Shown here piece after piece: positions 3,730 through 49,304 of a stretch of DNA of 59,244 bases. Position numbers and translations under genes: made by a program. Below the pieces are notes generated by a model. It was not told the DNA's origin. It worked only from the letters and a program-made list of their open reading frames with translations, and did no database searches. How positions within the stretch are numbered: position 1 is the first letter of the stretch; every line of letters starts with the position of its first letter. This stretch comes from a virus. Its lineage: Duplodnaviria; Caudoviricetes. Location of the stretch: positions 1 to 59,244 of IMG/VR virus record IMGVR_UViG_3300042922_001463; one strand, written 5' to 3'.

Positions 3730-4907
3730 TCCGGATAGCCGACAAGAGTCAGCTTAGCGTTGTTAGCGGTGAAGTTAACCGTTGAAAGTAGACGAAGCGT
3801 GGTAACTCGACCCGTTTGCGTATAAACCTTGTTGGATCGCTGCACTAAACTCCATCCGGTAGTGAACGCATTTTCCGTGCTTAGTATACCAGCACGTTGA
3901 TTGACGCCGCCGGGGAAAATGCCGGCTTCAAGGTTAGCTTCCCACGACGAACTCAAAGTCATCTGAACCGCCAACTGATTGAACACCGACGCAAACGTTG
4001 CGGAGGACATCGCAACGGACGTGTTCGAATAACTGTCCGTGGCTGTTAGGAAAGTTGCTCCATTATCATAGCTAAAGCGGCCAAAGATAACCTGGTTTCC
4101 ACCGGTCGTAAGGTTCTGGACGAACAGTTTGAAGTGCGAATATCCGGCCGGCAGCACGACATCGATCGCCGCAACGGCCGCACTTACCGTCGTCACTGAT
4201 ACCACCCGCGCCGCCTTGCCTAAGCCGATATTGGCCTGAGCCTGCGCCTGCTGCGGCGTGGTGAGCGTCTGCGCGCCATAACGGAGCACGTCGGCTAGAC
4301 CCAACGTCGCGCGGGCCGTGGCCGCGTCGGCGTCGTCCATGACGGTCGCCATGTAGGCCGACGGCGGCACATAGACCTGCCACCCCGAAAGCCCCCTGAT
4401 GAACTGCTGGCCGGTCGCGATGTTGTAGACGAGCCAGCCGCCTTCCGTCGTCGTGAACTGCCAGGCGGAGCCGGTCCACTGCGCGAGGTTGTTGGCCTGC
4501 CCAACCCAGGCTCCGGTCGGTGCCGTCCACACCAGGTAAAAGTCGCCGGCGACCGGCGAGACTGGCGGCGCGTTGGGGATGCCCTGCACCCGATAGACGG
4601 GCGCCGCGGCCTTAATGATGCCGGCGCGGGCGATCATGCCCCGAACCTGCTCGGCGAGATATCCGGAGGTGAAGCGCTGCGGTGCGTCGAAGCGCAGCAC
4701 ATAGGGGACACCCACCTGATCGGCCGTCACCGCGACGGCCAGTTCCAGATGATTGGCATCGGTCGGCGAGGCGATCGTCTTCGCGGGAAGGTCGCCAATC
4801 TCGATCGTATCGCCGGGCAGAACGCCGCTCCAGAGCCCGCCGGTCAGCGTAACTGTCGTGCCGGCGCTGGCCACCGAGACGGTGCCGGTGCTGTAGAATT
4901 CGGGCAT
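3726..4907 (-). CDS. Tail fibre / receptor-binding protein with DUF2793-like domain
   Basis: YSTGTVSV N-terminus, PPVSPVAGDFYLV..PTGAWVGQ motif, QQAQAQANIG linker, variable C-terminus. Confidence 0.8.
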   Translation of the reverse strand: MPEFYSTGTVSVASAGTTVTLTGGLWSGVLPGDTIEIGDLPAKTIASPTDANHLELAVAVTADQVGVPYVLRFDAPQRFTSGYLAEQVRGMIARAGIIKAAAPVYRVQGIPNAPPVSPVAGDFYLVWTAPTGAWVGQANNLAQWTGSAWQFTTTEGGWLVYNIATGQQFIRGLSGWQVYVPPSAYMATVMDDADAATARATLGLADVLRYGAQTLTTPQQAQAQANIGLGKAARVVSVTTVSAAVAAIDVVLPAGYSHFKLFVQNLTTGGNQVIFGRFSYDNGATFLTATDSYSNTSVAMSSATFASVFNQLAVQMTLSSSWEANLEAGIFPGGVNQRAGILSTENAFTTGWSLVQRSNKVYTQTGRVTTLRLLSTVNFTANNAKLTLVGYPE

Positions 4908-4922
4908 GTTGTCCTCGAGGAA

Positions 4923-6272
4923 TTAGACGTCGGAAACGTTCAGCATCGACGCGAACCCGGGTGCCGTGACCGTGTAGCTGCTCGGGCGATCCCACCCATA
5001 GGTGGTGCGGCTGGAGACGTAGCCGCGCAGCCCCTCATAGGCGAGGTACACGCCGAGCCCGCTGTCGAACATCATCACGCCCTTGAATGAGACGCTGCCG
5101 TTCGCGCACCACCAGTAGTTCGCCTGCTGGTCGTAGAGCATGAAGAACGGGAATGGCGCGCCCGCTCCGGATGGTGGCGGGTCGGGAAGGAAGTAGCTCC
5201 CGGTCGGAGCGCTCGCATTGATGGCCGCAAAATCCTTGAAGCGGGCGAACATGCGCTTCGAACTGAAAATCAGGTCAGCCGGCGTCGAGACGTCGTAATC
5301 AACCCCAGCCCGAGTAACGGCCAGGCCTTCTGCCGCCGAGGCGAAGCACCGCGTGATGCCGGCACCCGGATCGGCGCCGCCCTCCCACGCGGGATCACCG
5401 CCGACGATGGCGTAGCGTATATTCGAGCCGGCACCGCTGCTCGTGATAAGGATCTGGTTGGCGCTGAGCCAGTAGATTTGGCACCCGGATTCGGTGTGGT
5501 TGGGCAATCCCATCCCGTATGCAATCACCGGAGGATAGTTCGGGTAGGACCGGGCGAGCGTCACCACGGAGGCCGCCCACAAGGTGGACGGCTGCTCCGG
5601 CTGGCCCAGCGGGTCGCTGGTGGTCGATCCCGTCACACCGACGGTCCCGGTCTCCGCGATCTGGAAGGCGTTCCTCCGCGTCGTGAAGAGCATGTCGTCG
5701 AGACCGGCTGTATCGACGTTGATGATGCCCGGGCGGGAAATATGCAGGCCCGGGCCGTGCAGCGGATGATTGCCGAAGAAGATGCCGTTGCCGCCGCCAC
5801 CTTCGGCCGCTGTGCCGTTGACCCCGAAGACGTAGAAGACGTAGTCGACGCCGGTTCGCTGCGGCGAAAGCAGGATGCTGTTGGTCTGCAGCGTCACCCC
5901 GCAGGTGCCGTAGCCGCGCTGATACGACACCGTCGTGGCGGCGCCGCTCGACGGCGTGTAGCTCATCGTCCCGGGACCGCGGCGAACCCAGGCCAGCGTC
6001 GGCCGCGTCTGATTGTTTCCCGCCGACGGCAGGATCTTGACGCGCCGCGTCGGCGTGTAGGCCCCTGCCGCCGGATAGGTGACGGTGAAGTCGGTCAGGC
6101 TGGCGGCTGTTCGCACCCCGTTCGAGAGCAGGCGCAATCCGTTGAGCCAGAAGCTGTCGAAGGTGAGGTAGCGCTCATCGAGGGCGAGGTTGGACGCGTC
6201 GTAGCCGATGAGGGCCGTTCGCAGCCGCTTGATCGTCCCGCCGAAGGAATCGATGAAGATATGGTCCGGCAC
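4923..6272 (-). CDS. Tail tip accessory structural protein
   Basis: Between J-like gene and fibre; repeated GL.(I/V)(S/T)R.G..V...D..F segments. Confidence 0.65.
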   Translation of the reverse strand: MPDHIFIDSFGGTIKRLRTALIGYDASNLALDERYLTFDSFWLNGLRLLSNGVRTAASLTDFTVTYPAAGAYTPTRRVKILPSAGNNQTRPTLAWVRRGPGTMSYTPSSGAATTVSYQRGYGTCGVTLQTNSILLSPQRTGVDYVFYVFGVNGTAAEGGGGNGIFFGNHPLHGPGLHISRPGIINVDTAGLDDMLFTTRRNAFQIAETGTVGVTGSTTSDPLGQPEQPSTLWAASVVTLARSYPNYPPVIAYGMGLPNHTESGCQIYWLSANQILITSSGAGSNIRYAIVGGDPAWEGGADPGAGITRCFASAAEGLAVTRAGVDYDVSTPADLIFSSKRMFARFKDFAAINASAPTGSYFLPDPPPSGAGAPFPFFMLYDQQANYWWCANGSVSFKGVMMFDSGLGVYLAYEGLRGYVSSRTTYGWDRPSSYTVTAPGFASMLNVSDV

Positions 6273-6274
6273 GG

Positions 6275-9200
6275 CTAGCTCGATATCCGGAAGGTGCCGG
6301 CATTCAGATCGAGAACCACCTTGCCGTCCGCCGACCGAATGATCCCGGCGGTGAGCGTTCCCACGTTGCCCGTGATCGCCGACAGGGCACCGACGTTGAA
6401 CTTCACCGCCGTGATCGACCCATCGACGATGAGGTCGCCCTGAATGAAGATGCCCGAGGCATTCGACACAAAGGGCGATACCCGCAGCCCGTTCGCCAAC
6501 CGCGTCAGCACGAACAGATCGGCCTCGGCCTCGAAGGTCGAAAAGGTGACGCCAGCGTTGCTGTAGGCCGCGATCATCATGGCGGCGCGCGTCGTGTAGA
6601 CGCCGTCGGTCACCTGCGCTGCCGCCTCATAGGCCGCCAGCGCCCCGGCCGGCAGAGAGACCGCCGCCACGGTGCGGAAGGTCACGTTGGCGTCGAGATT
6701 GTCGAGTTCGGCCTGCAGCTGCACGACCTGCGACGCGATGCCGGCGACGTCGTCGGCGACGACGGTGATCTTCTCCGTGTAGGAAGCCGTCACCCGCTCG
6801 GCAGAGGCGGTCAGCTGAAATCCCCATTCCTCCTTGTCGAGCCAGTTCTGGGAATCCTGTTCCGCGAGAAGCTCCGCCATCCGCTCATTGGCGAGATTGG
6901 TCGCAGCCAGAGCCTCGCCGATCTGCCGCTCGACATAGTCCCGCACCCCCTTCTCGAGGTTCTCCAGCGAGACCTGCACGTTGTCGGCGCGCGTCGTCGG
7001 CTGCGCCAGATCGTAATAGGCCCACGGCCCCTGCTTGCCGGCGGCGTTCACCGCGGCGACGCCGAGGCGCAGCGCCAGCGGCTCCACCTGCGCCGAGAGC
7101 TTGGGCATCCGCACGTCCGGCAGCGGCGTCCAGCTCTCGCCCTCGTCATAGGAGACGCGGGCGACGTAGAAGACCGCGCCGGGCACTGGCCCCCACTCGG
7201 CGACGATGCGGCAGGGCACCTCATTGGCGATGAAGCGGGCGGTCAGCAGAAGGGGCTGCGGAAAGGTCGGATTGCGCGGCGTGGTGGCTTCCGGCAGCGG
7301 CGGCGGCTCAGTCAGATCCTCGTCATGCACGCGGGCGTCGTCGACGAAGAGTTCCAGCGACACCCGGTCGCCCGCCGGCGCCGCCCGTGTGACGATGCAG
7401 CGGCGCTGCCAGGTCGTGCCCAGCCCGATGGCGAAGCTCGGAAGCTCGCCGCCCTCAGAGCGCGCCAGCGCGGCGTCCAGCGTGCCCTGTGCCGCTTCCA
7501 CGCTCGCCAGGTCGGCGCCGTCGAGGATGGCGATGCCGTCATTGGCGCCGCGCGCGCACTTGATCGGGCCGAAGGGCCGGCCGCGCTTGTCGCGGATCAG
7601 GATATAATGCTGGCCGGCCACCCACGCCGGGGCTTCGTGCAGATAGAGCGCATTGCCGACGCGGCGCGTCACCTTGCCGGAGGCACCCCATTGCTGCGGC
7701 AGATCCGATTGCAGCAGCACCGGCGCGCCGAGATAGAGCAGGCGGCCGTCATGCTCGGTCGTAAGCCGCACATTGATGCGGCGATAGAGGTTCTGCCGCA
7801 GCAGGAAATCGACCTCGCGCTGCGCCTGCGCCCGCTTCACGATGGGCAGCTGCAGCCTTGTCGCGCGGGCGATCTGCACTTCGCTGGCGGAGCGCGGCGC
7901 CACGGCCTCGGCCAACTGCCAGGTGCTCTCGTCGAGATATTCGAGCACGGCGCACTGCGCCTCGTCGGTCGGTCGCAGCAGATACTCGATCTCCAGCGAG
8001 CCGCGCACGATCTCCTGGTCGGTGATGAGCATGCGCGGCACGCTCGACCACTGCTCGCGCACCAGCGACAGCGTGCCGGCCATCCACACATGCTTGGCGC
8101 GGCAGGCCGAGAGCGCGGTATCGAGCGCCTGCGGCACCGGCACCGTGGCGGCGAAGTCATGGTCGAACGTGTCGCCCCGCGCGGCACAGGTGGCGGCGAG
8201 ATCGACGAAGGCCTGAAAGTCCAGCCGCGACAGCGGCAGGCTGCCGCCATAGGACGTGTTGGTGACGATATCGAGCGCCGCCCAGGCCGGCGAACGGGTC
8301 GGCTGCTCCACCCAGGCCGAGCCGTTCCAAACGGGCAGGATGCGCGTCGCCACCTCGGAAAGGCGGGACAGCGCGTCGCCGGAGAACTGGTCGGTGGCCT
8401 TGGCGCGGATGGCGATCGTCGAGACCGGGAAGCTCTGCGGCCCGGTCAGGAAGGCGCGCAGTTCGCCCCAAGTGATCTGGTCGACGATGTTGCTCTCGGT
8501 CGCCTTCGCCGTCGTGCGCCGAACCCGCACCTCATAGCGGCCGGCAGGGACATCTGCGGCGAGGCTGAAGCGGATCTGCGACTTCGAACAGAACGGCAGC
8601 GCCGGGCCGAAGCCGAGCGTGCTCCAAGAACCATCGCCCGTCGGCGCGCCGGCATCATTGACCGGGCGGTACTGCGCCAGCACCGGCACGTAGTGCGGGG
8701 TCAGCACGCCCTCATCGTTCTGAAGGCCGCAGCCCTGCGGCATGATCAGATCGACCACCAGGCGCGTCGCCTGCGTACCTGCGGCGTTGGCGATGAAGCC
8801 GCCGGTCCACGCCGGGAAGTCGAGTTCCTGCCCGCTCACCTCGGCCGAGGATTCGACGTTCACCGGGAACAGCGTCACCTGCTGGCCGGGATTGTAGAAA
8901 GCGATCTGCACTCCCTGAAATTGCGGGTTCACGCCGGTGCCGCTGGTCCACAGCGGCGTGTCCTCGATCAGGATCTGTTCGGGCTGGAGCCGGCCCTCGC
9001 CGCGCGACAGCAGCACATGGATGTACTGATCGTTCCCCTCATAGCTCGACCATTCCGGGGCGGCCTTGTCGAGCACGCGCTTGCGCCGTCCATAGCAGGA
9101 AGGAATCGGTTCCAGCGGGCGGGCGAGGTTGAGGCCGGTTCCCCAGCTGTAGATCGGGTCGGGCTCGGCCTGACTGCCCCCCGGCTTCACCGCCATCAGC

Positions 9201-10550: not shown

Positions 10551-10939
10551 GGCGACACCGGCACGAGCTCGGCCGGCAGCACGAGCAGCGAGAACGACAC
10601 CATGGTCTCGGCGCCGATCGAGCCATACTGGATGCCGCCGGCGCCACCGATGATCTGCACGACGCGAGTCGTATAGGTCTGGCCGTCCAGCGACACCGGC
10701 ATGAGGAAGCGCGTCGCGCCGCCGCCGATCGTCGCGAGGAAGGCCGTGAAGCTGGCCATCTGCGCGCCGGTCAGGCCGCGACCCCACCTGCCTGTGCCGA
10801 CGCCGTCACCGGGACGGCGCCGCTGACGCGTGTCCCCGCCTTCCATCTCGGTGGAGATCACCTCCCGACCCGGAACATAGCCCCATGCGGATCGCTCCGG
10901 GCGGAATGGGACCGCGCTCGGCCATTCAGCGTATGCCAT
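10547..10939 (-). CDS. Distal tail protein (gpM-like)
   Basis: WP...STEMEGGDTRQRRR motif directly after tape measure. Confidence 0.75.
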   Translation of the reverse strand: MAYAEWPSAVPFRPERSAWGYVPGREVISTEMEGGDTRQRRRPGDGVGTGRWGRGLTGAQMASFTAFLATIGGGATRFLMPVSLDGQTYTTRVVQIIGGAGGIQYGSIGAETMVSFSLLVLPAELVPVSP

Positions 10940-13900
10940 TAGCCCAGATCCCCACGGCGCAGGCCGTAACGGCGTTCGACTGCCGTAGCGACGTCTCCGC
11001 CATCTTCGAATTGCCGGCTCACCTCGTCAGCGGCGACACGGCGCATCATCAGCTCGATGTCGATTCCGCCATCAGCTCCCATCGTCGCCCGCGTCCGTGC
11101 GGTGTAACCCGCCGGGGCATTGCTGACGTGTACCGAGATGCGCGGCGGCGCCATGGGCCGGCTGTTGTCATTCGCCGTGCCGCGGAACGCCCGCAGCGCA
11201 TCGGCGACACCGACGGCGCCACCGGCGTCATAGCCCCTGAGACCGCGATGCAGCGCGTCGAGGTTGCCGACGCCGGCGCTCCGGACCGCCTCCTGCGAGA
11301 ACACGAACTCGCCGCGATGCACGAGACCGGCGGCGTCGTACTTGCCGCCGGCGCCGGTGTACCCGCCGGTCGCGTAGATCGAGCCGGAGGCCGCCGCGAA
11401 ACCAGAAGAAGCCCCGGTAGATGGCGCCCCGAAGTTGAGAAATCCGGCCACGATGCTGCCCAGCGTGTTGCTACCGCTCGTGCCCGGCCCGAAGAGGCTC
11501 GCCGCCAGGTTCTGCATCGCGATGTCGAGAACGACGTTCAGTGCGCGCTTGGCGGCGTTCTCCAGCGCCTCCATGGCATCCGCGCCGTCGAGGATGTCGC
11601 TGACGAAGCCGGAGAGGAAATCGCCGGCTATGTCCCGGGTGGTGCTGAGGATGGCGTTCAGCCGCAGCGCCTGTGCCTCGAAGGAATCCAGGTCGACGGC
11701 GAGGCCGGCGGAGCGCAGCGTCGAGGCGATCTGCTGATCGATCGGGCCGCGGCCCAGCTGATCGCGCTCAAACTGGATATCCGCCATCAGGTTCAGGCGC
11801 GCCGTCAGCTCCGCCTTGCGGCCGAGCTCGGCGTTCTGCTGCTTCAGCAGTTCAAGCTGGCGTTCATCTACGGCGGTGCCGTTGGCTTCGGCCTCACGCT
11901 TCAGTTCCCAATAGCTCTGGAAGTTGGCCCGGAGCTCGGCGACCTCGCCAGCCGTCTTCCCGATGAGATCGGCTTCAAGTTCCTGCGCTGCGACGCTCTG
12001 CTGCGCGCCGAGCAGACGATCCCGACCGGCCTGGTCAAGTGCCACCGTCGCCTGCGTCAGTTCGCGCGTAGCCGCCGCCTCGGCGCGCGCGGCCGCGGTC
12101 TTGCCGTCGGCCCCTTCGGTCTCTGCCCGGTAGCGCTCAAGTGCCGCCGACGCGGCCGCACGCTGTTCCGGCGTGATCGCCTTCAGCAGGGCGATCTCAA
12201 GTTCCTGCTCACGGCGAACGACCTCGGCCTGCGGAACAAGGTTCCCATAGGCGTCGGTCATCGACCGGATTTGGTTCGTGACGCCTTCGAGGGCCCTTTG
12301 CTGCCCAGCCGTATCACCAAGACCGTGATCGAGGGCGCGCTGCAAATCAGCCTGCTGCTCCTGAAGACGGAGCAGATCCCCGTAGCGGCTGTCCCAAGAA
12401 CGAAGCGCGTCGCCGCCCGCTGTCGAGTATCGGTTGAGCTGAGCTTCGTTGGCGCGCAGCGCGGATAGTCGCCGCTGCTGCTCCATGTAATCCTCGACCA
12501 CGGCCATCTCGGCCTCGATCGCGGACTTCCTCCATCCCGCCCACGACGGAGTTTCCTCGAGATTGCGCTGCAAGTCCGCCAAGCGCTGCTGCGTCAGCGG
12601 AATCTCGAAGCTCTCACTAATGATTTTGCCAGTATTAGCAAAGCCTTCGGAGATCGAGTTCGAGACGGACTTCCACGCGCGCCCGAGGGCGGTCAACCGG
12701 CTTTCCGCCTGAGGCAGCACGCGAACCAAGCGGTCGAGCAGCACTGCCTGTGCTTCGGTGGTACGGTTCGCCGCCTCAAGCCCCTTTACGTATTGAAGCG
12801 TTGTATCATCGAGAAAATTCAGCTTGAGGTTCAGATCATCGGCACCCTTTGCCGGATCTGCGAATGCTTCTGCCAATTCTTGCCCGGCCTGCACGACGTC
12901 GCCCGTCGTGATGCTTGCATAGTTCGCAGCAGCTTCGGTTAGTCCGATAAAGAACTGCGTCCCGATACGACCGGTCGCCGCGAACGCGCCAGCAATATCG
13001 CGCGCCGCCCCTTGGGAGATGTCGGCGGCATCAGCGGCCGCGGATGCAATAGCCATAATATCTTGCACCGAGGCGCCAGTTTCACGCCCTCGGCCGGCTA
13101 GTGCGGCTTGCAGTTCCTTTTCCGCCAAGATCCAGCTGGCATAGGCGGCGGTTGCCGTCACCCCTACCGCCGCGATAGCCGTGACCGCCGCGCCCATTGG
13201 CGTGACTAGACCGGCCATCGAATTTCCCAGCGCGCGCACGCCAGCGACCACACCGCCCTCGCGGGTGGAGAGGATCTGGTAGATCTGGCCCGCCTGCGAC
13301 GCGAAGACCTGCATGGGGTTGGCCCCCATCGCCAGCATCGTGACGATGTCGTTGATTTGAAAGGACAAATTCGACAGGTCGAAGGTGCTCAGCGTGCGGC
13401 GCGTTTGCTCAAAGCCGCGAAGCATGACGATCTGCTGCGCGAAGGCGTCCTTGGTCCGCTGGATCGAAGCGGCACGCTCGGTCTCGGTCAGGATGCCGAG
13501 TTTGGCCGCCTGATTGATCTCTTGGAGATTATCGAGGTAAACGCGCTGCACCTGCGCGAGCGGCAGGTATTTCTCCCGCAGGCGCTGGATTTCGTTGCCG
13601 ACCGCGGCGATGTCGGCCGCACGCGTGTCAGTGCCGAAATCATCGCGCACGCCGAGGCGCTGATTGATGCCCGCCTGCGCCGCGGCCGATCGCGCACGTG
13701 CGAGTTCCGCTTCAGCATCCCGGGCCTTCACCACCTCGGCGATGTAGCGCTCATATTCTCGGCGCACCGAGGCGACCGCGTCCGCCTCGGCCTTCGCGCT
13801 CGCGGCACCGAGACTTCCGAAGAGCCCATTGGCCCGCTCGTTGGCGGACTGGCGAGCGGAAAACGGAGCCGACGCCCGACCAAGCCCGCTGAGCGCGCGC

Positions 13901-14655
13901 TCCGCCGCAAAGATCCGACTGCGAAGCGCCTCTTCCTGTTCAAGCTGGCGATTGATCGCGGCCTGCGCCTCGCTGACACCCCGCAAGGAGACGATTTGGT
14001 CCGCAAACGCCTGCTTGACGCGAGAGATAGCCGCGGCGCGCTCACCTTCGGTCAGGGCGCCTGTGCGCGCCGCTTCGTTGATCTCGGCGAGCGTCTCTCG
14101 GTAACGCCGCTGCTCGGCGGTGAGCGGAACATATTTCTCTCGGAGACGCTGGATCTGCTCGCCGAAGGCGGCGATGTCGGCGGCGCGGGCTTCAGTGCTG
14201 AAGTCGTTGCGAACGCCGAGCACAGCGTTGTAGCTCTGCTGCGCTGCTGCGGCCGCCGCGATGGCCTGCGTCTCCTCTTGGACGCGGCGCGTCATCTCTT
14301 GCTGCGCGGCCGAAACGATCCGATGCTTGGCATGCATCAGGTCGAGCGTCCGGGCGTATTCCTCTGCGGTCATCCGCCCGGTTTGAAGGGCACGATCCAG
14401 CTTCTGGTGCTCGCGAGCGAGCATCTGAAGGACGCGGTATTCATCATCGTAACGTCGGCGCACCGTGTCCGCCGCACGGCCGGCGTCGAGTTGGCGCTTC
14501 GTCACCGTGTCGGTGGTGAGAGCCATGGTCTCACCGGTGCGCGCGACATTGCCCTGCGCCGCCGCGACGCCCAGCAAATCGCGCTCAACCTTATCGAGAC
14601 CACGGCTCTCGCCTTGAACGACAAGGCGCCGGATCTGTTCGACGGTGGTGGCCAT
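10939..14655 (-). CDS. Tape measure protein
   Basis: About 1238 aa, Ala-rich helical; NLSFQINDIVTMLAMGANPMQVF; C-terminal ATGGYTGAGGKYDAAGLVHRGEFV. Confidence 0.93.
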   Translation of the reverse strand: MATTVEQIRRLVVQGESRGLDKVERDLLGVAAAQGNVARTGETMALTTDTVTKRQLDAGRAADTVRRRYDDEYRVLQMLAREHQKLDRALQTGRMTAEEYARTLDLMHAKHRIVSAAQQEMTRRVQEETQAIAAAAAAQQSYNAVLGVRNDFSTEARAADIAAFGEQIQRLREKYVPLTAEQRRYRETLAEINEAARTGALTEGERAAAISRVKQAFADQIVSLRGVSEAQAAINRQLEQEEALRSRIFAAERALSGLGRASAPFSARQSANERANGLFGSLGAASAKAEADAVASVRREYERYIAEVVKARDAEAELARARSAAAQAGINQRLGVRDDFGTDTRAADIAAVGNEIQRLREKYLPLAQVQRVYLDNLQEINQAAKLGILTETERAASIQRTKDAFAQQIVMLRGFEQTRRTLSTFDLSNLSFQINDIVTMLAMGANPMQVFASQAGQIYQILSTREGGVVAGVRALGNSMAGLVTPMGAAVTAIAAVGVTATAAYASWILAEKELQAALAGRGRETGASVQDIMAIASAAADAADISQGAARDIAGAFAATGRIGTQFFIGLTEAAANYASITTGDVVQAGQELAEAFADPAKGADDLNLKLNFLDDTTLQYVKGLEAANRTTEAQAVLLDRLVRVLPQAESRLTALGRAWKSVSNSISEGFANTGKIISESFEIPLTQQRLADLQRNLEETPSWAGWRKSAIEAEMAVVEDYMEQQRRLSALRANEAQLNRYSTAGGDALRSWDSRYGDLLRLQEQQADLQRALDHGLGDTAGQQRALEGVTNQIRSMTDAYGNLVPQAEVVRREQELEIALLKAITPEQRAAASAALERYRAETEGADGKTAAARAEAAATRELTQATVALDQAGRDRLLGAQQSVAAQELEADLIGKTAGEVAELRANFQSYWELKREAEANGTAVDERQLELLKQQNAELGRKAELTARLNLMADIQFERDQLGRGPIDQQIASTLRSAGLAVDLDSFEAQALRLNAILSTTRDIAGDFLSGFVSDILDGADAMEALENAAKRALNVVLDIAMQNLAASLFGPGTSGSNTLGSIVAGFLNFGAPSTGASSGFAAASGSIYATGGYTGAGGKYDAAGLVHRGEFVFSQEAVRSAGVGNLDALHRGLRGYDAGGAVGVADALRAFRGTANDNSRPMAPPRISVHVSNAPAGYTARTRATMGADGGIDIELMMRRVAADEVSRQFEDGGDVATAVERRYGLRRGDLG

Positions 14656-14722
14656 GGAGGATCCTTGCCGCGACGAAAGCGGGACAGCTAATCTCGTCAT
14701 CGTCGACCCTGGGGGAACAGCG

Positions 14723-15037
14723 ATGCGGATCTTTCTCGTCGTCTTGTTGATCGCCGTGATTGCTACAGGCGCAATTGCCTATACGCAGCTGTCTTTCTTC
14801 TCTGTTCAACCTATTGGCGCCGTGCCGGAAGGTCGAACAGTTTTGTTGCTACGAAACGGCCCGATGGAATTCATCGACAGCGCCGATGCGATATGCATGA
14901 GAACCACAGGTAGTGTGACACTACTATGTCGCGGCGCCGTATTGGGCCGCGTGTCTTCGTCACCGATATTGCTGCGACTGCCTTATCAACGATGGCTTTA
15001 CCTTATGTCGACAGATGGTCGAGAGTTTGGAGGATAG
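14723..15037 (+). CDS. Membrane-anchored/secreted moron protein
   Basis: GGGGGA RBS, signal peptide MRIFLVVLLIAV, lower GC, opposite strand to late genes. Confidence 0.7.
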   Translation: MRIFLVVLLIAVIATGAIAYTQLSFFSVQPIGAVPEGRTVLLLRNGPMEFIDSADAICMRTTGSVTLLCRGAVLGRVSSSPILLRLPYQRWLYLMSTDGREFGG

Positions 15038-15043
15038 AAAGCG

Positions 15044-15083
15044 GGCACAGGGAGACGATCTTGCGCATCGACCTCCCTGTGCC
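15044..15083 (-). terminator. 11-bp hairpin closing the pentamer array (probably bidirectional)
   Basis: GGCACAGGGAG (15044-54) / CTCCCTGTGCC (15073-83). Confidence 0.65.
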
Positions 15084-15294
15084 TGACAGCGCACGCCGCG
15101 CCTAGTCAAACCGCGACTTCTCTCGTCCCGCCTCGCCACACACAGCCCTGCCGCGCCGGCCTCGACTGGACAAGCCTTGCCCTGCCAAACCTCTCCACGT
15201 CAAACCTGGCCCCGCCTCGCCGTGCCTGCCATGCCAGAACAAGCCGTATCTAGGCTTGCCTTGCCGTGCCGCAACTCTCCTTGCCTGCCCTGCC
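15084..15294 (-). repeat. Non-coding GGY-NN pentamer array; putative guide-RNA array in three phased blocks
   Basis: Minus strand: GGCA|GGCAA GGAGA GTTGC GGCAC GGCAA GGCAA GCCTA GATAC GGCTT GTTCT GGCAT|GGCA|13 pentamers|GGCC|14 pentamers|GTCA. Confidence 0.9.
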
Positions 15295-15332
15295 GAGATC
15301 CCTGCCAGACCGATGGGCCATCGGCCTTCGCA

Positions 15333-15839
15333 CTACTCCGCCGCGATCTGCGGCTGTTCCACGCCGCCGAGGCTCTCGATAGCCGCAGCGAAAACACCGG
15401 GGTCACGGCCGACATGGATCAGCGCGGCCTGATACCGCGTGAGCCAGGCGCGCAGCGCGAGAGCCGCCTGCCGGCAATGCTCCGTCATATGCGCCGGGTC
15501 ATCCGGATCGACGAGGACATATCCTCCCCCATCCCGCCTTCCACCGATGGGAGATAGCACCATCGGCATCGGCGCTTCGCGTACCAATATTGTGCCCTTT
15601 CGGCCGATCTCCTCGACCTTGAACGACACGCGCAGGTCGCGGGCGAAGTCGCGCGCCTGTTCGACCTGATAGGCGTGCGCAGCCTTGTCCCGATCCCATT
15701 CGAACCATTCGTAGGCGGGATGTTCGACGCCCTTCTCGCGGACCTCGTCGAGAAAGAGGCCTGGGTTGAACTGGCCGTTATGACGAAGAGCGAACTCGCG
15801 GACGATCTCCTGACGGCGTTCTTTGGTGAAGCGGCTCAT
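15333..15839 (-). CDS. Partner protein of the RAMP-like gene
   Basis: HPAYEWFEWDRDKAAHAYQVEQAR motif; TGATG coupling to upstream gene. Confidence 0.8.
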   Translation of the reverse strand: MSRFTKERRQEIVREFALRHNGQFNPGLFLDEVREKGVEHPAYEWFEWDRDKAAHAYQVEQARDFARDLRVSFKVEEIGRKGTILVREAPMPMVLSPIGGRRDGGGYVLVDPDDPAHMTEHCRQAALALRAWLTRYQAALIHVGRDPGVFAAAIESLGGVEQPQIAAE

Positions 15840-16594
15840 CAGGCAGCCCTCCGCCTTACTTCGCCATGGAAGAACTCCATCAGGTCGGTCGTGTCGCGGT
15901 CGGCATATCCCGGCGCGTTCAGCGCCTCGATCTGCGCCGGCCGGCCATGGTCGGCGATGAGTTCATCCCATTCGGCGTCTTCCTCGCCCTCGCCGAGGAC
16001 CCGGAAGCTGCCGTATGCGCCCTTGCCCTTCTCCTGCCGGTAGTCGCCGACGCCGACCAGAACGCCCGCGTTGCAGAGAAGCGCCACGACCGAGGCGACT
16101 GAGAGCTGAGGCGTGATGAACTGGATCTCAACCTCCGCGCCCCATTTCGGCAGGAAGGCACGGGTCCGGACGTCCGGCGTCTTGTTGATGTCGGCCGAGC
16201 GGACGACGTCCATGCGCAGCTGCGGCACGCCATAGAGCGGCGCGAAGTCGCCCGGCATGAACAGCAGGCGCTGTGCCGACGTCTTCGTGAGGCCGGGCGT
16301 CTCCAGAGCGGCCGTGGACATGGCCGCTTTGATCGCGACAACGCGCAGGCCGAGAGCAGTCGGTCCGGCGGGGAGGATCTCGGCGCTGTCGCGAAATTCC
16401 TGCAGAGGGTCGTGCTTGATCTGCGCTCGGTCCGCCCGCCCCTTCTTCTGGCCACCGACGAGCAGCTGCTGCTTCGCCTTGTTGGCCATGCGGTTCTGGA
16501 ACAGCGGCGTGACGCCGATGACCCGCAGCTTCACCGATCCGCGGCGAAGCGGCTGCACTGTGACTTCTTCGATGTCCGAAGGCTTCTTGGCCAT
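15839..16594 (-). CDS. Cas7/RAMP-like RNA-binding protein (Vipr-like)
   Basis: GGAGA RBS; first strand LRVIGVTPLFQN; C-terminal Gly-rich loop GVLVGVGDYRQEKGKGAYGSFRV; start re-called to ATG 16594 (251 aa). Confidence 0.8.
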   Translation of the reverse strand: MAKKPSDIEEVTVQPLRRGSVKLRVIGVTPLFQNRMANKAKQQLLVGGQKKGRADRAQIKHDPLQEFRDSAEILPAGPTALGLRVVAIKAAMSTAALETPGLTKTSAQRLLFMPGDFAPLYGVPQLRMDVVRSADINKTPDVRTRAFLPKWGAEVEIQFITPQLSVASVVALLCNAGVLVGVGDYRQEKGKGAYGSFRVLGEGEEDAEWDELIADHGRPAQIEALNAPGYADRDTTDLMEFFHGEVRRRAA

Positions 16595-16605
16595 TGTCAG
16601 TCTCC

Positions 16606-16670
16606 ATGGGCATCCGGCCCGCCAAGACCTGGATGCGTACAGGTGGTCGCTCACGACCGCCGGAGCCCAT
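16606..16670 (-). ncRNA. Predicted three-way-junction RNA in the leader of the RAMP-like gene
   Basis: 12-bp outer stem (16606-18 / 16659-70, one bulge) enclosing ACCTG/CAGGT and GGTCG/CGACC hairpins; abuts the RBS. Confidence 0.5.
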
Positions 16671-16729
16671 GAAGCTCGCGGTCGCATCAAATCCCCATGG
16701 CGGCGGGGAATTCGTGATGTCGGGTGTTC

Positions 16730-17392
16730 TCAGCTCGCCAGAGCGAGCCGCTCGATGTCGTTGATCAGGGCGATGGTCGCGTTGCAGTCGTCGCCGGTCC
16801 AGTTGCTGGCATCTTGCCGGCGGACGACGGCGACCTTCACCGCGAGATCGGAGAGAGAGGTCGCCGGCGTGGTGAGGATTTCGTCCTCGATCGCGCAGAG
16901 CGCCTCGTACGCGGTGATGGAGGTTTCCTCGGCGGCGTCTAGGCCGATCTCATCGCGCAGCCGCTTGAGGTCGCTCTCCCACCGACGGACGGCATCTGCC
17001 CTCGCCTGCGCCTTGTCAGCGAGCTCGTGCCAGTTCCTCTTTCGGTACTTGGCGGCCAGGCCTTCCCATTGGGCGATGGTGCCAACGGTACGATACCGGC
17101 CATCAGGCTGACGCTCTTCCGACCAGCGGGCAGAGAACATGAAGCCGTTCGGCACGTATGCCTCTCCCGGCCTTATGGGCTTCAGGTCGGCGTAGAGCCG
17201 CCCTACCCTCTCTGCCTCGTCGCTGGTGCTCTCGTAAGCGGCCAACGCCGCATCGAACTGCGGCTTCAGCATCGCGATAGCGCTGCTGGCCATCGCTGGC
17301 AGCGGGATCGTCAGTCCAGCCGCCACCCCGGCGCCAAGGCCGGTGAGGAACCGGCGCCGGGATGTGTTAGTCCTTGTCGTAGCTTCGACCAT
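16730..17392 (-). CDS. Hypothetical phage protein with Tat-like N-terminus
   Basis: SRRRFLTGLGAG; C-terminal ILTTPATSLSDLAVKV motif; GGAG RBS. Confidence 0.7.
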   Translation of the reverse strand: MVEATTRTNTSRRRFLTGLGAGVAAGLTIPLPAMASSAIAMLKPQFDAALAAYESTSDEAERVGRLYADLKPIRPGEAYVPNGFMFSARWSEERQPDGRYRTVGTIAQWEGLAAKYRKRNWHELADKAQARADAVRRWESDLKRLRDEIGLDAAEETSITAYEALCAIEDEILTTPATSLSDLAVKVAVVRRQDASNWTGDDCNATIALINDIERLALAS

Positions 17393-17419
17393 CGGACTGA
17401 ACTCCGTGGTTGGGGTTAG

Positions 17420-17510
17420 GGCCGGGAGGAAGTTGCCGCTTCCTGCCGGCCTGCTTTCGTGATAACACGATTACACTGATTGTCAACTCATGTTATCACG
17501 ATAACACCAA
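17420..17510. promoter_or_regulatory. Divergent promoter/operator region plus leader hairpin
   Basis: Perfect inverted repeat CGTGATAACA (17458-67) / TGTTATCACG (17491-500); minus-strand TTGACA-N16-TATCAC; hairpin 17420-17451. Confidence 0.7.
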
Positions 17511-17792
17511 ATGCGCGCACCCGAGACTGGAACGCTAGTCGGAGTCCGGCTTCAGGCTGACGACCTCACAACCCTCGATGGCTGGCGGCGTCAGCAGGAC
17601 GATCTTCCTTCGCGCCCTGAAGCGATCCGCAGGCTGACCGCGTTCGCGCTCGCCCTCGCGCCTCACTTTGAAGAGGTCAAGGGCGTCATAGGCGACGCCA
17701 TCTCCACGGACGAAGGCGACCTCATCGACCCGGCACATCGAGCGCTGTTGGATGCACTTGTCGAGGCCAATGAAGCTGTGCGCAGCTCATGA
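17511..17792 (+). CDS. Ribbon-helix-helix (Arc/CopG-like) repressor, probably leaderless
   Basis: LVGVRL...LDGWRRQQDDLPSRPEAIRRL. Confidence 0.8.
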   Translation: MRAPETGTLVGVRLQADDLTTLDGWRRQQDDLPSRPEAIRRLTAFALALAPHFEEVKGVIGDAISTDEGDLIDPAHRALLDALVEANEAVRSS

Positions 17793-17930
17793 CCCTCGGG
17801 CCCCTGCGGAATCGCTGCGGGCAGCACAAGTCGGTCACGAAAACGCCCGCGAACCTAGCGGCCGCGGGCGTCTATCGCTGACAAACATGGCCCCACCTGC
17901 TCCCGCGGGACAGGGCGCCCGAAGATCAAT

Positions 17931-18494
17931 CTAATGGGCGGCGACCACCCGAAGCGGGGCCGGCTTCGACGCCGACTGCGAACGATACTGGACCGTGGCC
18001 GCGCGTGCGATCGCTGCCTCCACGCCCCGATTGGTCAGCTTCGCAGCGTATCTTGGCATGAGTTCGGCCGTCTCGGGCCACCGCAGGAACAGCGCGACCA
18101 ATCCGCTCGCCAGCGCCGTCTCGAACGCATCGCCGAGATCTGGCCGGGCGGTCCGCATCTGCGTCAGGTCGTCGAAGAACCTCTGATCCTCCGCGCTGGT
18201 CGCTCGCAGCTTCGCGGTCGGCTTGCACAGCTTTTCCGCCAGGATAGTCGCCTGCTTCCTGTCCGCTGAGATGTCGCTGATGGCGAGCAGCATCTCGACC
18301 GCGCTGGGAACCGCGGCCGGATCGGTGACGAACTTCTCCATTGCCTCGTAGTGCTGGCGGAGGTTGTCGGCGGCTGCCTTGTAGCGGACGGCAGCGGCGC
18401 GCGCGTGCTCACGTCGCGTGGTGATCACGTGCCAGCCCAGCGAGATGATGGCGGCTACGAAGACATAGGCCCACATATCATCCATTTGCGGCAT
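17931..18494 (-). CDS. Membrane-anchored moron protein
   Basis: N-terminal TM (WAYVFVAAIISLGW) then helical domain. Confidence 0.65.
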   Translation of the reverse strand: MPQMDDMWAYVFVAAIISLGWHVITTRREHARAAAVRYKAAADNLRQHYEAMEKFVTDPAAVPSAVEMLLAISDISADRKQATILAEKLCKPTAKLRATSAEDQRFFDDLTQMRTARPDLGDAFETALASGLVALFLRWPETAELMPRYAAKLTNRGVEAAIARAATVQYRSQSASKPAPLRVVAAH

Positions 18495-18959: not shown

Positions 18960-19691
18960 CTAGGCGGGATTGGACGGGCTGAGATTCGTGCCGGCGACGG
19001 CCTCGGTGAGTGCCGCCGACATCTTCGAGATCAGCGTATGGAAGCGCTCGAAGGCGTCCGGCCCCGTGATCCCGAGCCGCTCCGCATAGCGGTCGATAGC
19101 AGTGAATGGGATGCCGCCATGCGGGCCGGGCGTCCGGTCCGACAGCAGCGTCCAGAACGCCTTCCATTCGAGCTCGAGGTGATCCGCCAGCGCCGGCCGC
19201 TCGGCGAGCGCCTTCGGCGTCACCCCCTCCTCGCGGCCGAGGTCTTCCAGCCACTGCAGCTGGTCGCCCCATGCCACCATCCAGCGCAGCATGGCGGTCA
19301 GGTTGCTCGCATCGGCTTCCAGCGAGGCAACGCCGCGATCGGCGACGATCCCGCCGGCCGCGACGCAGGCGCCGGCCAGATACTCGCCGATCTCCGGATC
19401 GGTCAGCAGGTCGACGGTGCAGGGTTCGTCCAGGCTCCAGTCGACGACGACAGTGCGGACGAGCACCTCCGCGAGGATCCTCGCCGAGACTTCCGGCGGC
19501 ATCTTCTCCTTGTGCTCGTCCGGGAGCTCCCGAACGAGTTCGCCGCGCAGCTTCGCCGCCTCGGTATTGCGCAGGCTGCGGGCCTTGACGTCGAGGCTGA
19601 TGCCGAGCTCGTCGAGAACGATGCCCTTCACCCACGCCCCACCGGCGGCCTTGACCTTTGCCGCCCTGAGATCACCGACCTTCAGTTTCAC
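18960..19691 (-). CDS. Tail assembly chaperone, G- and T-like parts in one frame
   Basis: After tail tube; VVDWS in G-like half; WKAFWTL...IPFTAIDRYA T-like half. Confidence 0.75.
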   Translation of the reverse strand: MKLKVGDLRAAKVKAAGGAWVKGIVLDELGISLDVKARSLRNTEAAKLRGELVRELPDEHKEKMPPEVSARILAEVLVRTVVVDWSLDEPCTVDLLTDPEIGEYLAGACVAAGGIVADRGVASLEADASNLTAMLRWMVAWGDQLQWLEDLGREEGVTPKALAERPALADHLELEWKAFWTLLSDRTPGPHGGIPFTAIDRYAERLGITGPDAFERFHTLISKMSAALTEAVAGTNLSPSNPA

Positions 19692-19896: not shown

Positions 19897-20823
19897 TCAG
19901 GCGACGGCGCGCGTGATCTTCACCGAGCAGGCCTCGGTGGCGTCGAGGACGGCGCGGTACGGAATCGACATCATTACGTCGTCGTTGTTGCCGCCGATCT
20001 GCTTGGCGCCGTCGAGGAAAATGATCTTGGGCAGCAGGACCGTGTATTTCTTGCCGCTGTCCTTGCCGATGTTGAAGCTCAGTGCGCCGCCGCCGTGGTC
20101 GAGCACCGCCTGGTAGAGCGCCTGGCTCTCGAAATAGGCCTCAAGGGTGCCGGTGCTGTCGAAGCGGCCCGCGCCGAACTCCTCCGTATACAGCGAGCCG
20201 ACCACGGGCCGTTCGCGGAGGTTGTTGTTGAACTCGAGGTTGAGGCTCCGCACCTTCGGCACCGGATTGAGACCGGCGACGGCCAGGGCCGCGACATGAG
20301 CGGAAGACGTCAGGATCGGCTCGGTCGTCGCCGCCGTATAGGTGGCGCCGGTGACGATCGCCGAGGCGAGCGTCTCCTTCTGGCCGACCAGTCCGACCGA
20401 ACCGGTGACCTTCGCGCGCGCCGCGATGGCGAGGGAGAAGGTGTTGACGGTGCAGCCGGTATAGCGGTGGAAGCTGTCGGTGGCGCCGAGCTCCAGCGTC
20501 TCTTCCACGGTGAAATACTTCGGGGTGATGCCGTTCTTCAGGACGTTGGTGGTCCAGGTGCCGCGCAGCGCCGCCTCGAGCATGTCGTCGAAGGTGCTGT
20601 AGGAGAATTCGAACGGATAGGCGCCGCTGACGCCGAGGCCCAGCAGACCTTCGTCGGGCACGTTGCGGTCAGCCCGGAGCTCGTCGCTGGTCTGCGTCGT
20701 CTTGTTGGTGCGCGGCCCGCCGCCGGTGGTGCGGAAGGTCTTGAAGGTCGGGGTGGCCGGCGTGGCGCCATACGTCGCCTCGGCGACATAGGCGATCCGC
20801 GCCTCGCTCGAATTGGCAGGCAT
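19897..20823 (-). CDS. Major tail tube protein
   Basis: IAYVAEATYGATP, SDELRADR, GTLEAYF motifs. Confidence 0.88.
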   Translation of the reverse strand: MPANSSEARIAYVAEATYGATPATPTFKTFRTTGGGPRTNKTTQTSDELRADRNVPDEGLLGLGVSGAYPFEFSYSTFDDMLEAALRGTWTTNVLKNGITPKYFTVEETLELGATDSFHRYTGCTVNTFSLAIAARAKVTGSVGLVGQKETLASAIVTGATYTAATTEPILTSSAHVAALAVAGLNPVPKVRSLNLEFNNNLRERPVVGSLYTEEFGAGRFDSTGTLEAYFESQALYQAVLDHGGGALSFNIGKDSGKKYTVLLPKIIFLDGAKQIGGNNDDVMMSIPYRAVLDATEACSVKITRAVA

Positions 20824-35576: not shown

Positions 35577-36185
35577 TCATCCGGCCGCCTCCGTGGCGTC
35601 GAACTTCGTCGCTTCGTTGCCCCAGGTATCCCAGCCGGCGCGCGACTGCCGGGAGAAGACGGACACACGCCGCGCCTCCGGCCACGCCTTCTCAACGGCC
35701 GCGTAGAACTCGTCGGGCTTGCGGGAATGCTCCCTGGCAACGCCGTCGATCGCATCGGCTTCGAGCGTCTCGACGAGATTGGGGAAGCCGGCTCCCTTCC
35801 ATGACGACCCGGGCAGCCGCGCGATGATGTACGGCTCGTGGAGCGACCGGGCGACATAGCCCGTGCCCCAACGCGCCTTGCCTGACGGGTATCGCTTGGT
35901 CCATCCGCCGCCGGTCACCGGCAGCAGGCCCCAACCACGGATCACCTCGACATGGGCGCCGATCGCCACGAGCGGCCAGGTGCACCACATGATGCACACG
36001 CCGCCGGGCGCTATCAGATTGCCGACCGGCAGAGCCTTGATGTCCTCCAGCGACATCGTCTGGTACTGCGCCTGGGCGGACTTCTTCTCCCCCTTGGCCG
36101 AACGAAGGGCGAAGGTCCACGCGGGGTCGAGCTCGACCACGTCATAGGCAAACATCGACAGAGGGAAGAACGGCCAGCCGGTCAC
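35577..36185 (-). CDS. MT-A70 family adenine methyltransferase
   Basis: YDVVELDPAW, YQTMSLEDIKALPV, REHSRKP, FSRQSRAGWDTWGNE. Confidence 0.9.
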   Translation of the reverse strand: MTGWPFFPLSMFAYDVVELDPAWTFALRSAKGEKKSAQAQYQTMSLEDIKALPVGNLIAPGGVCIMWCTWPLVAIGAHVEVIRGWGLLPVTGGGWTKRYPSGKARWGTGYVARSLHEPYIIARLPGSSWKGAGFPNLVETLEADAIDGVAREHSRKPDEFYAAVEKAWPEARRVSVFSRQSRAGWDTWGNEATKFDATEAAG

Positions 36186-48265: not shown

Positions 48266-49304
48266 CCCTCGCAAGCTCGACGTCCGCCTGCACGACACTC
48301 GGGTCGGCATATGGCAGGAGGATCCGAACGATCCGACCTTCAAGAGCCAGATCTTCGACGGCATCATTCGCCTGCTGCGGCGGCGTGGCTGGACGGTCAC
48401 CCACGATCCGCACACCCTCAAGCACTACCGCTGCATTTCCAAGTACACCCGGCTGGCACGTAAGGGAAACCTGCACGCATCGCTGCAGGTCCACGGCCGC
48501 TCGATCGAGTTCGAATGCTGGGCTGAGACCTGGCAGAAGGTGAACGTCAACGGGCACCGCTACGACTTCGATAAGCGCCAGCGGTTCGATTACATCGATC
48601 GGCTCCGGCTCGAGCTCGAAGAGCGGGCGATCATCGTGTGGCTGTCCGATCGCGCCGCGGTGTCGGTCGATCGACACAAGCCGATGCCGAGCACCGGGGC
48701 GATCACCGCTCTCGACTTCCTCAAGGCTGGCTATGCCAAGTCCTGGCACACCGACAAGGCGCTCGGTCGCCCGACATGGGGACAGGATTACAACCGCAAG
48801 AGCGCCGATGGCTTCCTGCTGGAGCACGGGGCAACGGTCTGGACGACGGACGGCAAGGGCCGGCTCATCCGCGGCGTCGCCTACTACCACAACAACAATA
48901 TGTGGTGGGTCGTTGCCGGGCCGCACACGCTGCTCAATCAGGCATGCCGGGAGATCTATGCCGAGCAGCCGGACGACCTTCGCCGTAAGCGCAATGGGCG
49001 TGCGCGTCGAAACCGGCTTGAGCGGGAACTCGCGAAGGCGGTCTCGGTTCACGACTATCGCCGCGCCGAGATCCTGAAGCGCATCATCTTCGGCGATGAG
49101 CCGGTCTACCGCATCTGGTCCCGCAAGAACGACTGCTTCTATGCGCCTCAGTACTGCGGCTACACGACCGATGAGAACCGCGCCGGCCGCTACACGCGAG
49201 CGGAAGCCGAGCGTGAGGTGCGCCGCGTTCCCCATCATCTGCACGCCATAGGGCCGGACGGCCGGCGGGAAGACTTCGGCATGGCGGGGGCGGCCCATGG
49301 CTGA
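48258..49304 (+). CDS. Hypothetical phage protein
   Basis: Long coupled ORF with good codon usage; C-terminal GYT...AGRYT.AEA. Confidence 0.8.
   Translation: MADPRKLDVRLHDTRVGIWQEDPNDPTFKSQIFDGIIRLLRRRGWTVTHDPHTLKHYRCISKYTRLARKGNLHASLQVHGRSIEFECWAETWQKVNVNGHRYDFDKRQRFDYIDRLRLELEERAIIVWLSDRAAVSVDRHKPMPSTGAITALDFLKAGYAKSWHTDKALGRPTWGQDYNRKSADGFLLEHGATVWTTDGKGRLIRGVAYYHNNNMWWVVAGPHTLLNQACREIYAEQPDDLRRKRNGRARRNRLERELAKAVSVHDYRRAEILKRIIFGDEPVYRIWSRKNDCFYAPQYCGYTTDENRAGRYTRAEAEREVRRVPHHLHAIGPDGRREDFGMAGAAHG

Follow-up and report, generated by a model that had tools for sequence, protein, structure and literature searches.

The question raised by this locus is whether a short phage-borne cassette, consisting of two genes and a G-rich repeat tract, encodes an RNA-guided system, and, if so, of what kind. 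The cassette lies on the minus strand of a 59,244-base virus record from soil (IMGVR_UViG_3300042922_001463; this whole stretch is referred to as the window), and comprises a gene for a 251-amino-acid (aa) protein, a gene for a 168-aa protein, and a non-coding tract built of GGY-NN pentamers (Table 1). All parts named in an earlier sequence-only reading were located using the open reading frame (ORF) list and the sequence, and its proposal of an RNA-guided, VIPR-type architecture was upheld by the RAMP fold of the 251-aa protein, a profile match to the Vipr protein of phage SUSP1, and arrays with different NN bases in related loci. The locus is very probably a VIPR (Viral Interference Programmable Repeat) system that a soil siphovirus-type phage carries as cargo among its tail genes. 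VIPR is a known kind of system, described in April 2026 preprints (10.64898/2026.04.26.720920, 10.64898/2026.04.26.720927). It is reported to consist of a RAMP protein, Vipr, usually an accessory gene (vap), and vrRNAs of 9-16 YNNGG repeats, to fall into seven types, and to occur mostly in phages and proviruses; as described, the NN bases alone pair with double-stranded DNA, one target base being skipped per unit, and transcription is silenced (10.64898/2026.04.26.720920).

An AlphaFold2 model of the 251-aa protein was produced from 81 diverse homologues, with a predicted local distance difference test score (pLDDT) of 96.0 and a predicted template-modelling score (pTM) of 0.89. In the model, a single RRM core (first strand at residues 17-27), with no second RRM domain, is combined with a thumb hairpin at residues 125-148, a G-loop at residues 181-195 (GVGDYRQEKGKGAYG), and a C-terminal extension of ~47 aa containing three helices (residues 207-250). 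Searching the PDB with this model using Foldseek gave 49 matches at E<=1e-3 (top E 1.8e-5), with modest TM-scores of 0.3-0.4; heading the list were Csm3/Cas7 subunits from type III-A, type VII, and type III-B complexes. Re-alignment of residues 15-204 using VIA gave Z-scores of 10.9-8.7, and all 50 of the 50 listed entries were CRISPR Cas7-family complexes or subunits. Fold prediction and structural search therefore bear out what had been read from the letters, namely a Cas7/RAMP-like protein with an RRM-like first strand and a C-terminal Gly-rich loop, with Csm3/Cas7 on top of the matches.

Kinship with Vipr was detected by sequence. The 251-aa sequence alone gave a weak match in the PDB to an entry named SUSP1 Vipr protein (36pp_D, E 0.035), and a profile of the 81 sequences gave the same chain at E 3.3e-8, with the runner-up at E 0.61. 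No family for the protein was found in Pfam, NCBIfam, or PADLOC, and its PHROGs family is of unknown function. At E<=1e-3, 2334 relatives were found among 3425 candidates, and 2128 representatives at 50% identity matched; relatives are 250-253 aa long, and the gene in the window starts at an ATG with GGAG 7 nucleotides (nt) ahead of it. In SUSP1 Vipr, G1 of the GGY is reported to be contacted by H17 and D177, G2 by R138 and W178, and Y3 by R179 among others (10.64898/2026.04.26.720927). By single-sequence alignment, R138, D177, W178, and R179 correspond to R145, D184, Y185, and R186 of the 251-aa protein, the equivalent of H17 not being alignable; R186 does not vary across the family alignment, where R145 and D184 recur in at least 90% of sequences. 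Model and sequence comparisons together support its assignment as a Vipr, a minimal Cas7-like RAMP protein.

The tract downstream of the two genes (15083-15294, minus strand, ~210 nt) is non-coding and markedly periodic. When period-5 power was computed across the window, the top three 200-nt segments started at 15126-15176, with values of 2.57-2.98 compared to a median of 0.30, and self-identity of the tract was 0.51, 0.44, and 0.47 at lags of 5, 10, and 15, and 0.20-0.31 at lags that are not multiples of 5. Within 15095-15312, 29 GGY motifs were counted, 16 of them with another GGY exactly 5 nt on, compared to a mean of 1.35 and a maximum of 8 such pairs in 5000 first-order Markov sequences. 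Period 5 also showed, more weakly, at ~8900-9200, a signal that was rejected as tail-fibre coding sequence (3 and 0 GGY pairs at +5).

The motifs fall into three blocks, predicted to be vrRNAs A, B, and C, each in a single register, with a shift of -1 at 15285, 15226, and 15157, and with two leader units (15294-15285) ahead of block A. At the boundaries between blocks, the final G of GGCAG or GGCCG doubles as the first G of the following block. GGY is present in 25 of 39 units (7/12, 10/14, and 8/13), and most of the others retain G at position 1. The tract had been described as strictly 5-nt periodic; its periodicity is far above chance, and strictness was given up in view of the three register shifts and the incomplete set of GGY units. 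The whole array folds better than shuffled sequences (z -3.55), which was not counted as evidence since the sequence is hypervariable. Searching 14800-18000 against Rfam returned no family at E<=1, and hence no hammerhead between guides. The hairpin noted earlier at the end of the array was confirmed by comparison to shuffles (Table 1) and is probably the operon terminator; it was not called by a consensus terminator scan.

To place the array among its relatives, 41 related loci were used, 10 from genomes (Bradyrhizobium, Microvirga, Methylobacterium, a Hoeflea metagenome-assembled genome (MAG), other MAGs, and two distant loci at 41% identity) and 31 from viral contigs, making 42 with the window. 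Arrays were called by chaining GGY at multiples of 5, requiring 4 or more motifs and a minimum of 55% conforming units. GGY blocks were present 0.6-2.3 kb past the vipr start in 41 of the 42 loci, the sole miss (L015) being a sequence that ends ~10 nt beyond the accessory gene. After identical arrays were dropped, the non-redundant set contained 35 arrays, 187 blocks, and 1814 units, with a median of 10 units per block. Information at positions 1-5 of the 1814 units was 1.61, 1.13, 0.62, 0.05, and 0.00 bits, the first three values being inflated by a caller that anchors on GGY and the flat NN values being unbiased. Clade-wide, 95% of units have G at position 1. Related loci share GGY and are hypervariable in NN, so that homologues do stand beside GGYNN arrays with different NN bases, as the sequence-only reading had anticipated. 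The guides comprise 160 distinct ones, 17 of which are common to non-identical arrays; the 12 of these 17 that were printed are all in near-identical locus groups.

The arrangement of blocks follows the same pattern across the clade. An overlap of exactly one base was seen in 48 of the 153 pairs of neighbouring blocks and a spacing of 4 nt in 29, and the remaining frequent gaps (9, 14, 24, 29, 34, 59, 69, and 84) are all equal to -1 modulo 5, with GGCAG as the unit preceding a one-base overlap in 52 of 57 cases (redundant loci counted). On these grounds, the staggered array is the rule in the clade. Seven relatives, mostly Bradyrhizobium-type (L001, L003, L007, L008, L016, L017, and L019), have an extra pentamer array between vipr and the accessory gene, at ~4766-4970, whereas in the window these two genes overlap by one base, with no array between them.

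The 168-aa gene had been described as coupled to the 251-aa gene, and the coupling was found both in the overlap of its start codon with the vipr stop (TGATGA) and in relatives, as the protein adjoins vipr in 39 of the 41 related loci by tblastn, the two misses being the most distant loci. By the same search, the tail chaperone, tube protein, and tape measure of the window were each found in 0 of 41 loci. From these counts, the conserved unit is vipr, the accessory gene, and the array, and it moves among different phage backgrounds. The accessory protein itself belongs to PHROG 15946, of unknown function, and to Atlas clusters of unnamed viral hypothetical proteins; it matched no Pfam or PADLOC family, gave only a chance-level NCBIfam hit (15.8 bits compared to a cut-off of 2500), and had no match in the PDB by sequence (best E 0.26). 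Its model was fair (pLDDT 87), and gave nothing at E<=1e-3 in Foldseek and only a helical hairpin in a wide VIA search (best Z 4.2). A predicted complex of Vipr with the 168-aa protein scored 0.00, which gives no verdict either way.

With Csm3/Cas7 as the top structural matches, the 251-aa protein could be taken for an orphan Cas7, a relic of type III or type I CRISPR-Cas, and the G-rich tract for a simple repeat unrelated to it. This is hardly credible, as the only significant PDB sequence match is to Vipr and not to a Cas protein, the pentamer array accompanies the gene in all but one of the 42 loci, and neither CRISPR repeats nor cas genes were detected. A search of the window for CRISPR-like repeats (at least 20 nt, at most 150 nt spacing) gave no family and one two-copy chance pair only, and none of the 42 window proteins scanned with PADLOC matched a cas model, thirty others being scanned with PHROGs only; both results agree with the absence of a CRISPR array and cas genes noted from the sequence. 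Vipr shares the RRM core, thumb, and glycine-rich loop with Cas7/Csm3 of class 1 CRISPR-Cas (Z ~10), and by homology would likewise polymerise along guide RNA at a fixed period. The locus differs from class 1 systems in having no CRISPR repeats, Cas5, Cas6, Cas10, Cas11, or adaptation genes. Cas7 is described as having a 6-nt period with one flipped base (10.64898/2026.04.26.720920), whereas the period here is 5 nt, and, by analogy with VIPR, three bases would be sequestered and a double-stranded DNA target would be read by a gapped code.

Directly ahead of the arrays, a conserved leader hairpin was found, within a subclade, in the window and in eight related loci (10 copies in 9 loci); L004 has two copies, one ahead of each sub-array. 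The leader consensus consists of (T/C)GCG-purine-purine, a hairpin of at least 6 pairs with a GCC-rich loop, and (C/T)TGGC-purine-purine-GGATC(A/T)(C/T)GG, followed by 1-2 units ending in GGCAG. Aligning the 10 copies gave 89 paired cells out of 90 (98.9%), and 7 of 9 pairs are changed on both sides, in a compensatory manner. The covariation score was 0.728, compared to 0.285 for shuffles (0 of 500 reaching 0.728) and at most 0.126 for slid partners. A covariance model was searched over 39 sources, leaving out L011, L013, and L020 as duplicates of L001, L004, and L007, and recovered the 10 training copies strongly (63-82 bits), the window site included; beyond these, it gave weak matches only (22-27 bits), inside arrays. 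In the outer stem, bases upstream of the repeat tract pair with its first GGC, and the hairpin could plausibly help to set the first register or act in processing. The leader hairpin appears to go beyond the VIPR text of the preprints.

The known reference systems are the type II exemplars of Escherichia phage SUSP1 and a Pseudomonas fulva prophage (10.64898/2026.04.26.720920, 10.64898/2026.04.26.720927). Insofar as they are described there, the locus resembles both in having a minimal RAMP protein with G-loop and thumb, the GGY-contact residues insofar as they are alignable, a two-gene operon, carriage by a phage, and GGY/NN guides of 9-16 units, with no CRISPR array and no self-targets. It is unlike SUSP1 in the length of Vipr (251 aa compared to a 202-aa SUSP1 chain), with its extra C-terminal helical part. 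It is unlike both exemplars, as reported, in that its guides lack an invariable 3' tail and abut with a 1-nt overlap, a structured leader stands ahead of the array, and no fold could be recognised for the accessory protein. Staggered vrRNA arrays, in which successive guides share one base, are mentioned in a figure legend of the preprint (fig. S18, 10.64898/2026.04.26.720920), and the positions shared here are 15285, 15226, and 15157; the likeness rests on that legend, the GGCAG end unit and the leader hairpin being known here from this clade. The main text of the preprint names no Alphaproteobacteria or Rhizobiales (10.64898/2026.04.26.720920).

For a mechanism, fold, Vipr kinship, contact residues, the array with its registers, co-occurrence in relatives, and hypervariable NN bases come directly from this locus and its relatives, and assembly into a filament, pairing by the 1-nt-skip rule, silencing, and the role against competitors are taken over from the preprints. 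The operon would yield Vipr, the conserved accessory protein, and one transcript with three vrRNAs of 12, 14, and 13-15 units, placed head to tail with a one-base overlap, with the leader hairpin before them and the terminator after them. By homology with SUSP1, one Vipr protomer would bind each pentamer unit, with G-G-Y sequestered by the thumb arginine and the Asp-aromatic-Arg of the G-loop, and the free NN bases would pair with double-stranded DNA carrying the same dinucleotides with one base skipped between them. Footprints of ~35, 41, and 38-44 bp would be expected for A, B, and C, and the bound filament would block transcription of a competing mobile element.

Targets were scanned by the 1-nt-skip rule, with guides A, B, and C providing 24, 28, and 30 NN bases. 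Within the window, the best matches of A, B, and C were 16/24, 17/28, and 20/30, compared to shuffled-guide maxima of 18, 20, and 21, and across the 41 related loci they were 16/24, 19/28, and 19/30, compared to null maxima of 19, 21, and 22. The lack of a self-target in the window agrees with the preprint, which likewise reports its systems to be without self-targets (10.64898/2026.04.26.720920). Guide B alone was searched at <=3 mismatches in 406 genomes, and matched in 0 of 5 and 0 of 401. Exact full-length patterns of A, B, and C gave 0 matches in viral contigs, and exact searches of metagenome contigs with the full guide A and with units 1-11 of guide B also gave 0. When 100 guides of relatives (at least 9 units) were scanned against the window, the best match was 20/24, equal to the null top. 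The host and competitors of the phage are probably unsampled.

Several points weigh against the VIPR reading, in addition to the GGY anchoring of the array caller. These searches gave no natural target for guide A, B, or C, and the 100 guides of relatives did no better than the null. The profile match to SUSP1 Vipr spans only ~50 residues (last strand and G-loop), and similarity is significant by profile only. In the array, 14 of 39 units are not GGY, and some protomer sites may therefore be poor. Transcription, processing, and Vipr binding of the vrRNAs are predictions, and the locus is not assignable to a type (I-VII) or vap class (vap1-6).

The incomplete GGY units and the lack of targets could together indicate a decaying VIPR, whose protein genes are intact and whose guides have drifted so that binding is no longer directed, and the contrast between 25/39 GGY units here and 54/55 in L035 points the same way. 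We consider this quite improbable, as internal degeneracy of vrRNAs is reported to be frequent (10.64898/2026.04.26.720920), G is kept at position 1 in nearly all units of the clade, and block boundaries, leader hairpin, and terminator are intact, while the target searches were narrow, being restricted to exact matches or to guide B. The lack of a phage target in viral contigs could also mean that a working VIPR is aimed at chromosomal or plasmid genes of the host, in a regulation of the lysogenic-conversion type, and not at competing phages or satellites; some vrRNAs are indeed reported to direct VIPR to host-genome sites (10.64898/2026.10.15.759431). Such an aim is unlikely, given that guide B, at <=3 mismatches, matched none of the 406 genomes and that natural VIPR targets are described as mostly satellites or prophages (10.64898/2026.04.26.720920). 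A VIPR directed against competing elements is the reading carried forward.

Within this VIPR reading, a further proposal concerns the clade, and is made tentatively, being more likely wrong than right: a covarying 5' leader may set the first register, GGCAG with the one-base overlap may mark the end of one filament or guide and the start of the next, and the guides may be tail-less. The leader would then either nucleate the Vipr filament or mark a site of processing, and guide boundaries would be written in the repeat register, with no separate handle. These marks could be read by clade-specific parts, namely the 168-aa protein and the added helices at the C-terminus of Vipr.

Going downstream on the minus strand, the region consists of a spacer (17393-17510), the Tat-signal gene, a 135-nt spacer, the 251-aa gene, the 168-aa gene, the G-rich tract, and the hairpin. 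The Tat-like gene had been counted within the operon. Its twin-arginine signal passes the NCBIfam cut-off, and relatives of the protein were found by tblastn in 0 of 41 related loci; by this comparison, it is local cargo outside the conserved system. The 135-nt spacer (16595-16729), which had been read as a structured leader of the 251-aa gene, was tested and not counted as a part of the system, showing a moderate fold excess only (z -3.0, 2 of 200 shuffles) and one 30-nt match in 1 of 41 loci, and hence no conservation.

The divergent RHH regulator of the sequence-only reading corresponds to a divergent 93-aa ORF with a weak PHROG match, and its link to the system is loose, relatives being found by tblastn in 3 of 41 loci, always divergent and upstream of vipr. 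A minus-strand ORF (17535-17738) overlaps it with a higher G+C content at third codon positions (0.78 compared to 0.67), which makes the RHH-like gene call uncertain; of the two overlapping ORFs, relatives and a weak PHROG match were obtained for the plus-strand RHH-like ORF only. Regulation of the leftward operon by this gene is possible. The operon had also been credited with its own promoter, a claim that was not sustained, as a consensus scan of 14900-18000 called no sigma-70-type promoter. By eye, the spacer at 17393-17510 contains TTGACA and two inverted repeats, TGTTATC-GT-GATAACA and TCGTG-TTAT-CACGA, sharing GTGTTATC; these repeats look like operators for a small repressor.

Annotation of the surroundings using PHROGs showed a siphovirus structural module on the same strand as the cassette. 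One side contains terminase, portal, protease, major head, connectors, a tail tube-like protein (19897-20823), and the tail assembly chaperone (18960-19691), and the other side contains the tape measure (10939-14700), in agreement with the leftward cassette first placed between tail chaperone and tape measure. With structural genes on both sides, the VIPR cassette is cargo within the tail-gene block of a siphovirus-type phage. Two further cargo genes flank it, for a small membrane-type protein and for a second 251-aa protein, without a family, and each was found by tblastn in 0 of 41 related VIPR loci. Elsewhere on the phage, two DNA methyltransferase-like genes matched PADLOC MTase_II (E 2e-33 and 8e-32), and one protein matched the candidate defence models PDC-M41B and PDC-M30B (E 3e-62); the coordinates listed jointly for these genes are 35577-36185 (-), 52331-54307 (+), and 49297-50247 (+).

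Table 1. Features of the VIPR cassette, its flanking genes, and leader copies in related loci
Feature	Coordinates	Strand	Basis and remarks
vipr, Cas7-type RAMP protein, 251 aa	15839-16594	-	AlphaFold2 model, Foldseek, VIA, profile match to SUSP1 Vipr
vap-like accessory gene, 168 aa	15333-15839	-	start codon overlaps vipr stop by one base
Array leader	15277-15345	-	covariation; conserved YGC...GCR stem around 6-bp hairpin, then GGATC(A/T)YGG and two GGCAG units
vrRNA A (predicted)	15226-15285	-	register analysis; 12 units, 7 GGY; last unit GGCAG
vrRNA B (predicted)	15157-15226	-	14 units, 10 GGY; begins on last G of A (1-nt overlap)
vrRNA C (predicted)	15083-15157	-	13 units (15157-15093), 8 GGY, and two degenerate units into hairpin; begins on last G of B
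Terminal hairpin, then CGCTTTCT	15044-15083	-	-30.5 kcal/mol, z -3.91, 0/200 shuffles as stable
Tat-signal gene, 220 aa	16730-17392	-	TIGR01409 (NCBIfam), 21.3 bits, cut-off 16.7
RHH-like gene, 93 aa, divergent	17511-17792	+	PHROG 4738 (transcriptional repressor), E 0.012
Small membrane-type protein	14645-15037	+	PHROG 37309, E 2.7e-29, function unknown
Second cargo gene, 251 aa	17931-18686	-	no family
Leader copy, L002	5350-5418		
Leader copies, L004	5421-5490 and 5682-5748		
Leader copy, L005	5250-5318		
Leader copy, L006	5269-5340		
Leader copy, L012	5230-5299		
Leader copy, L014	5494-5561		
Leader copy, L018	1493-1562		
Leader copy, L039	3250-3320		

The locus adds a clade from soil phages, high in GC and associated with alphaproteobacterial phages, to the recently described RNA-guided DNA binders, and the number of representatives at 50% identity indicates that the clade is large. 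It also provides a clean natural example of a staggered array, in which three guides overlap by one base, with GGCAG as end unit, behind a covarying leader and ahead of a terminator. As such, it could help to explain the cutting of arrays into guides and the setting of the register, two points of importance if VIPR is to serve as a compact programmable repressor.

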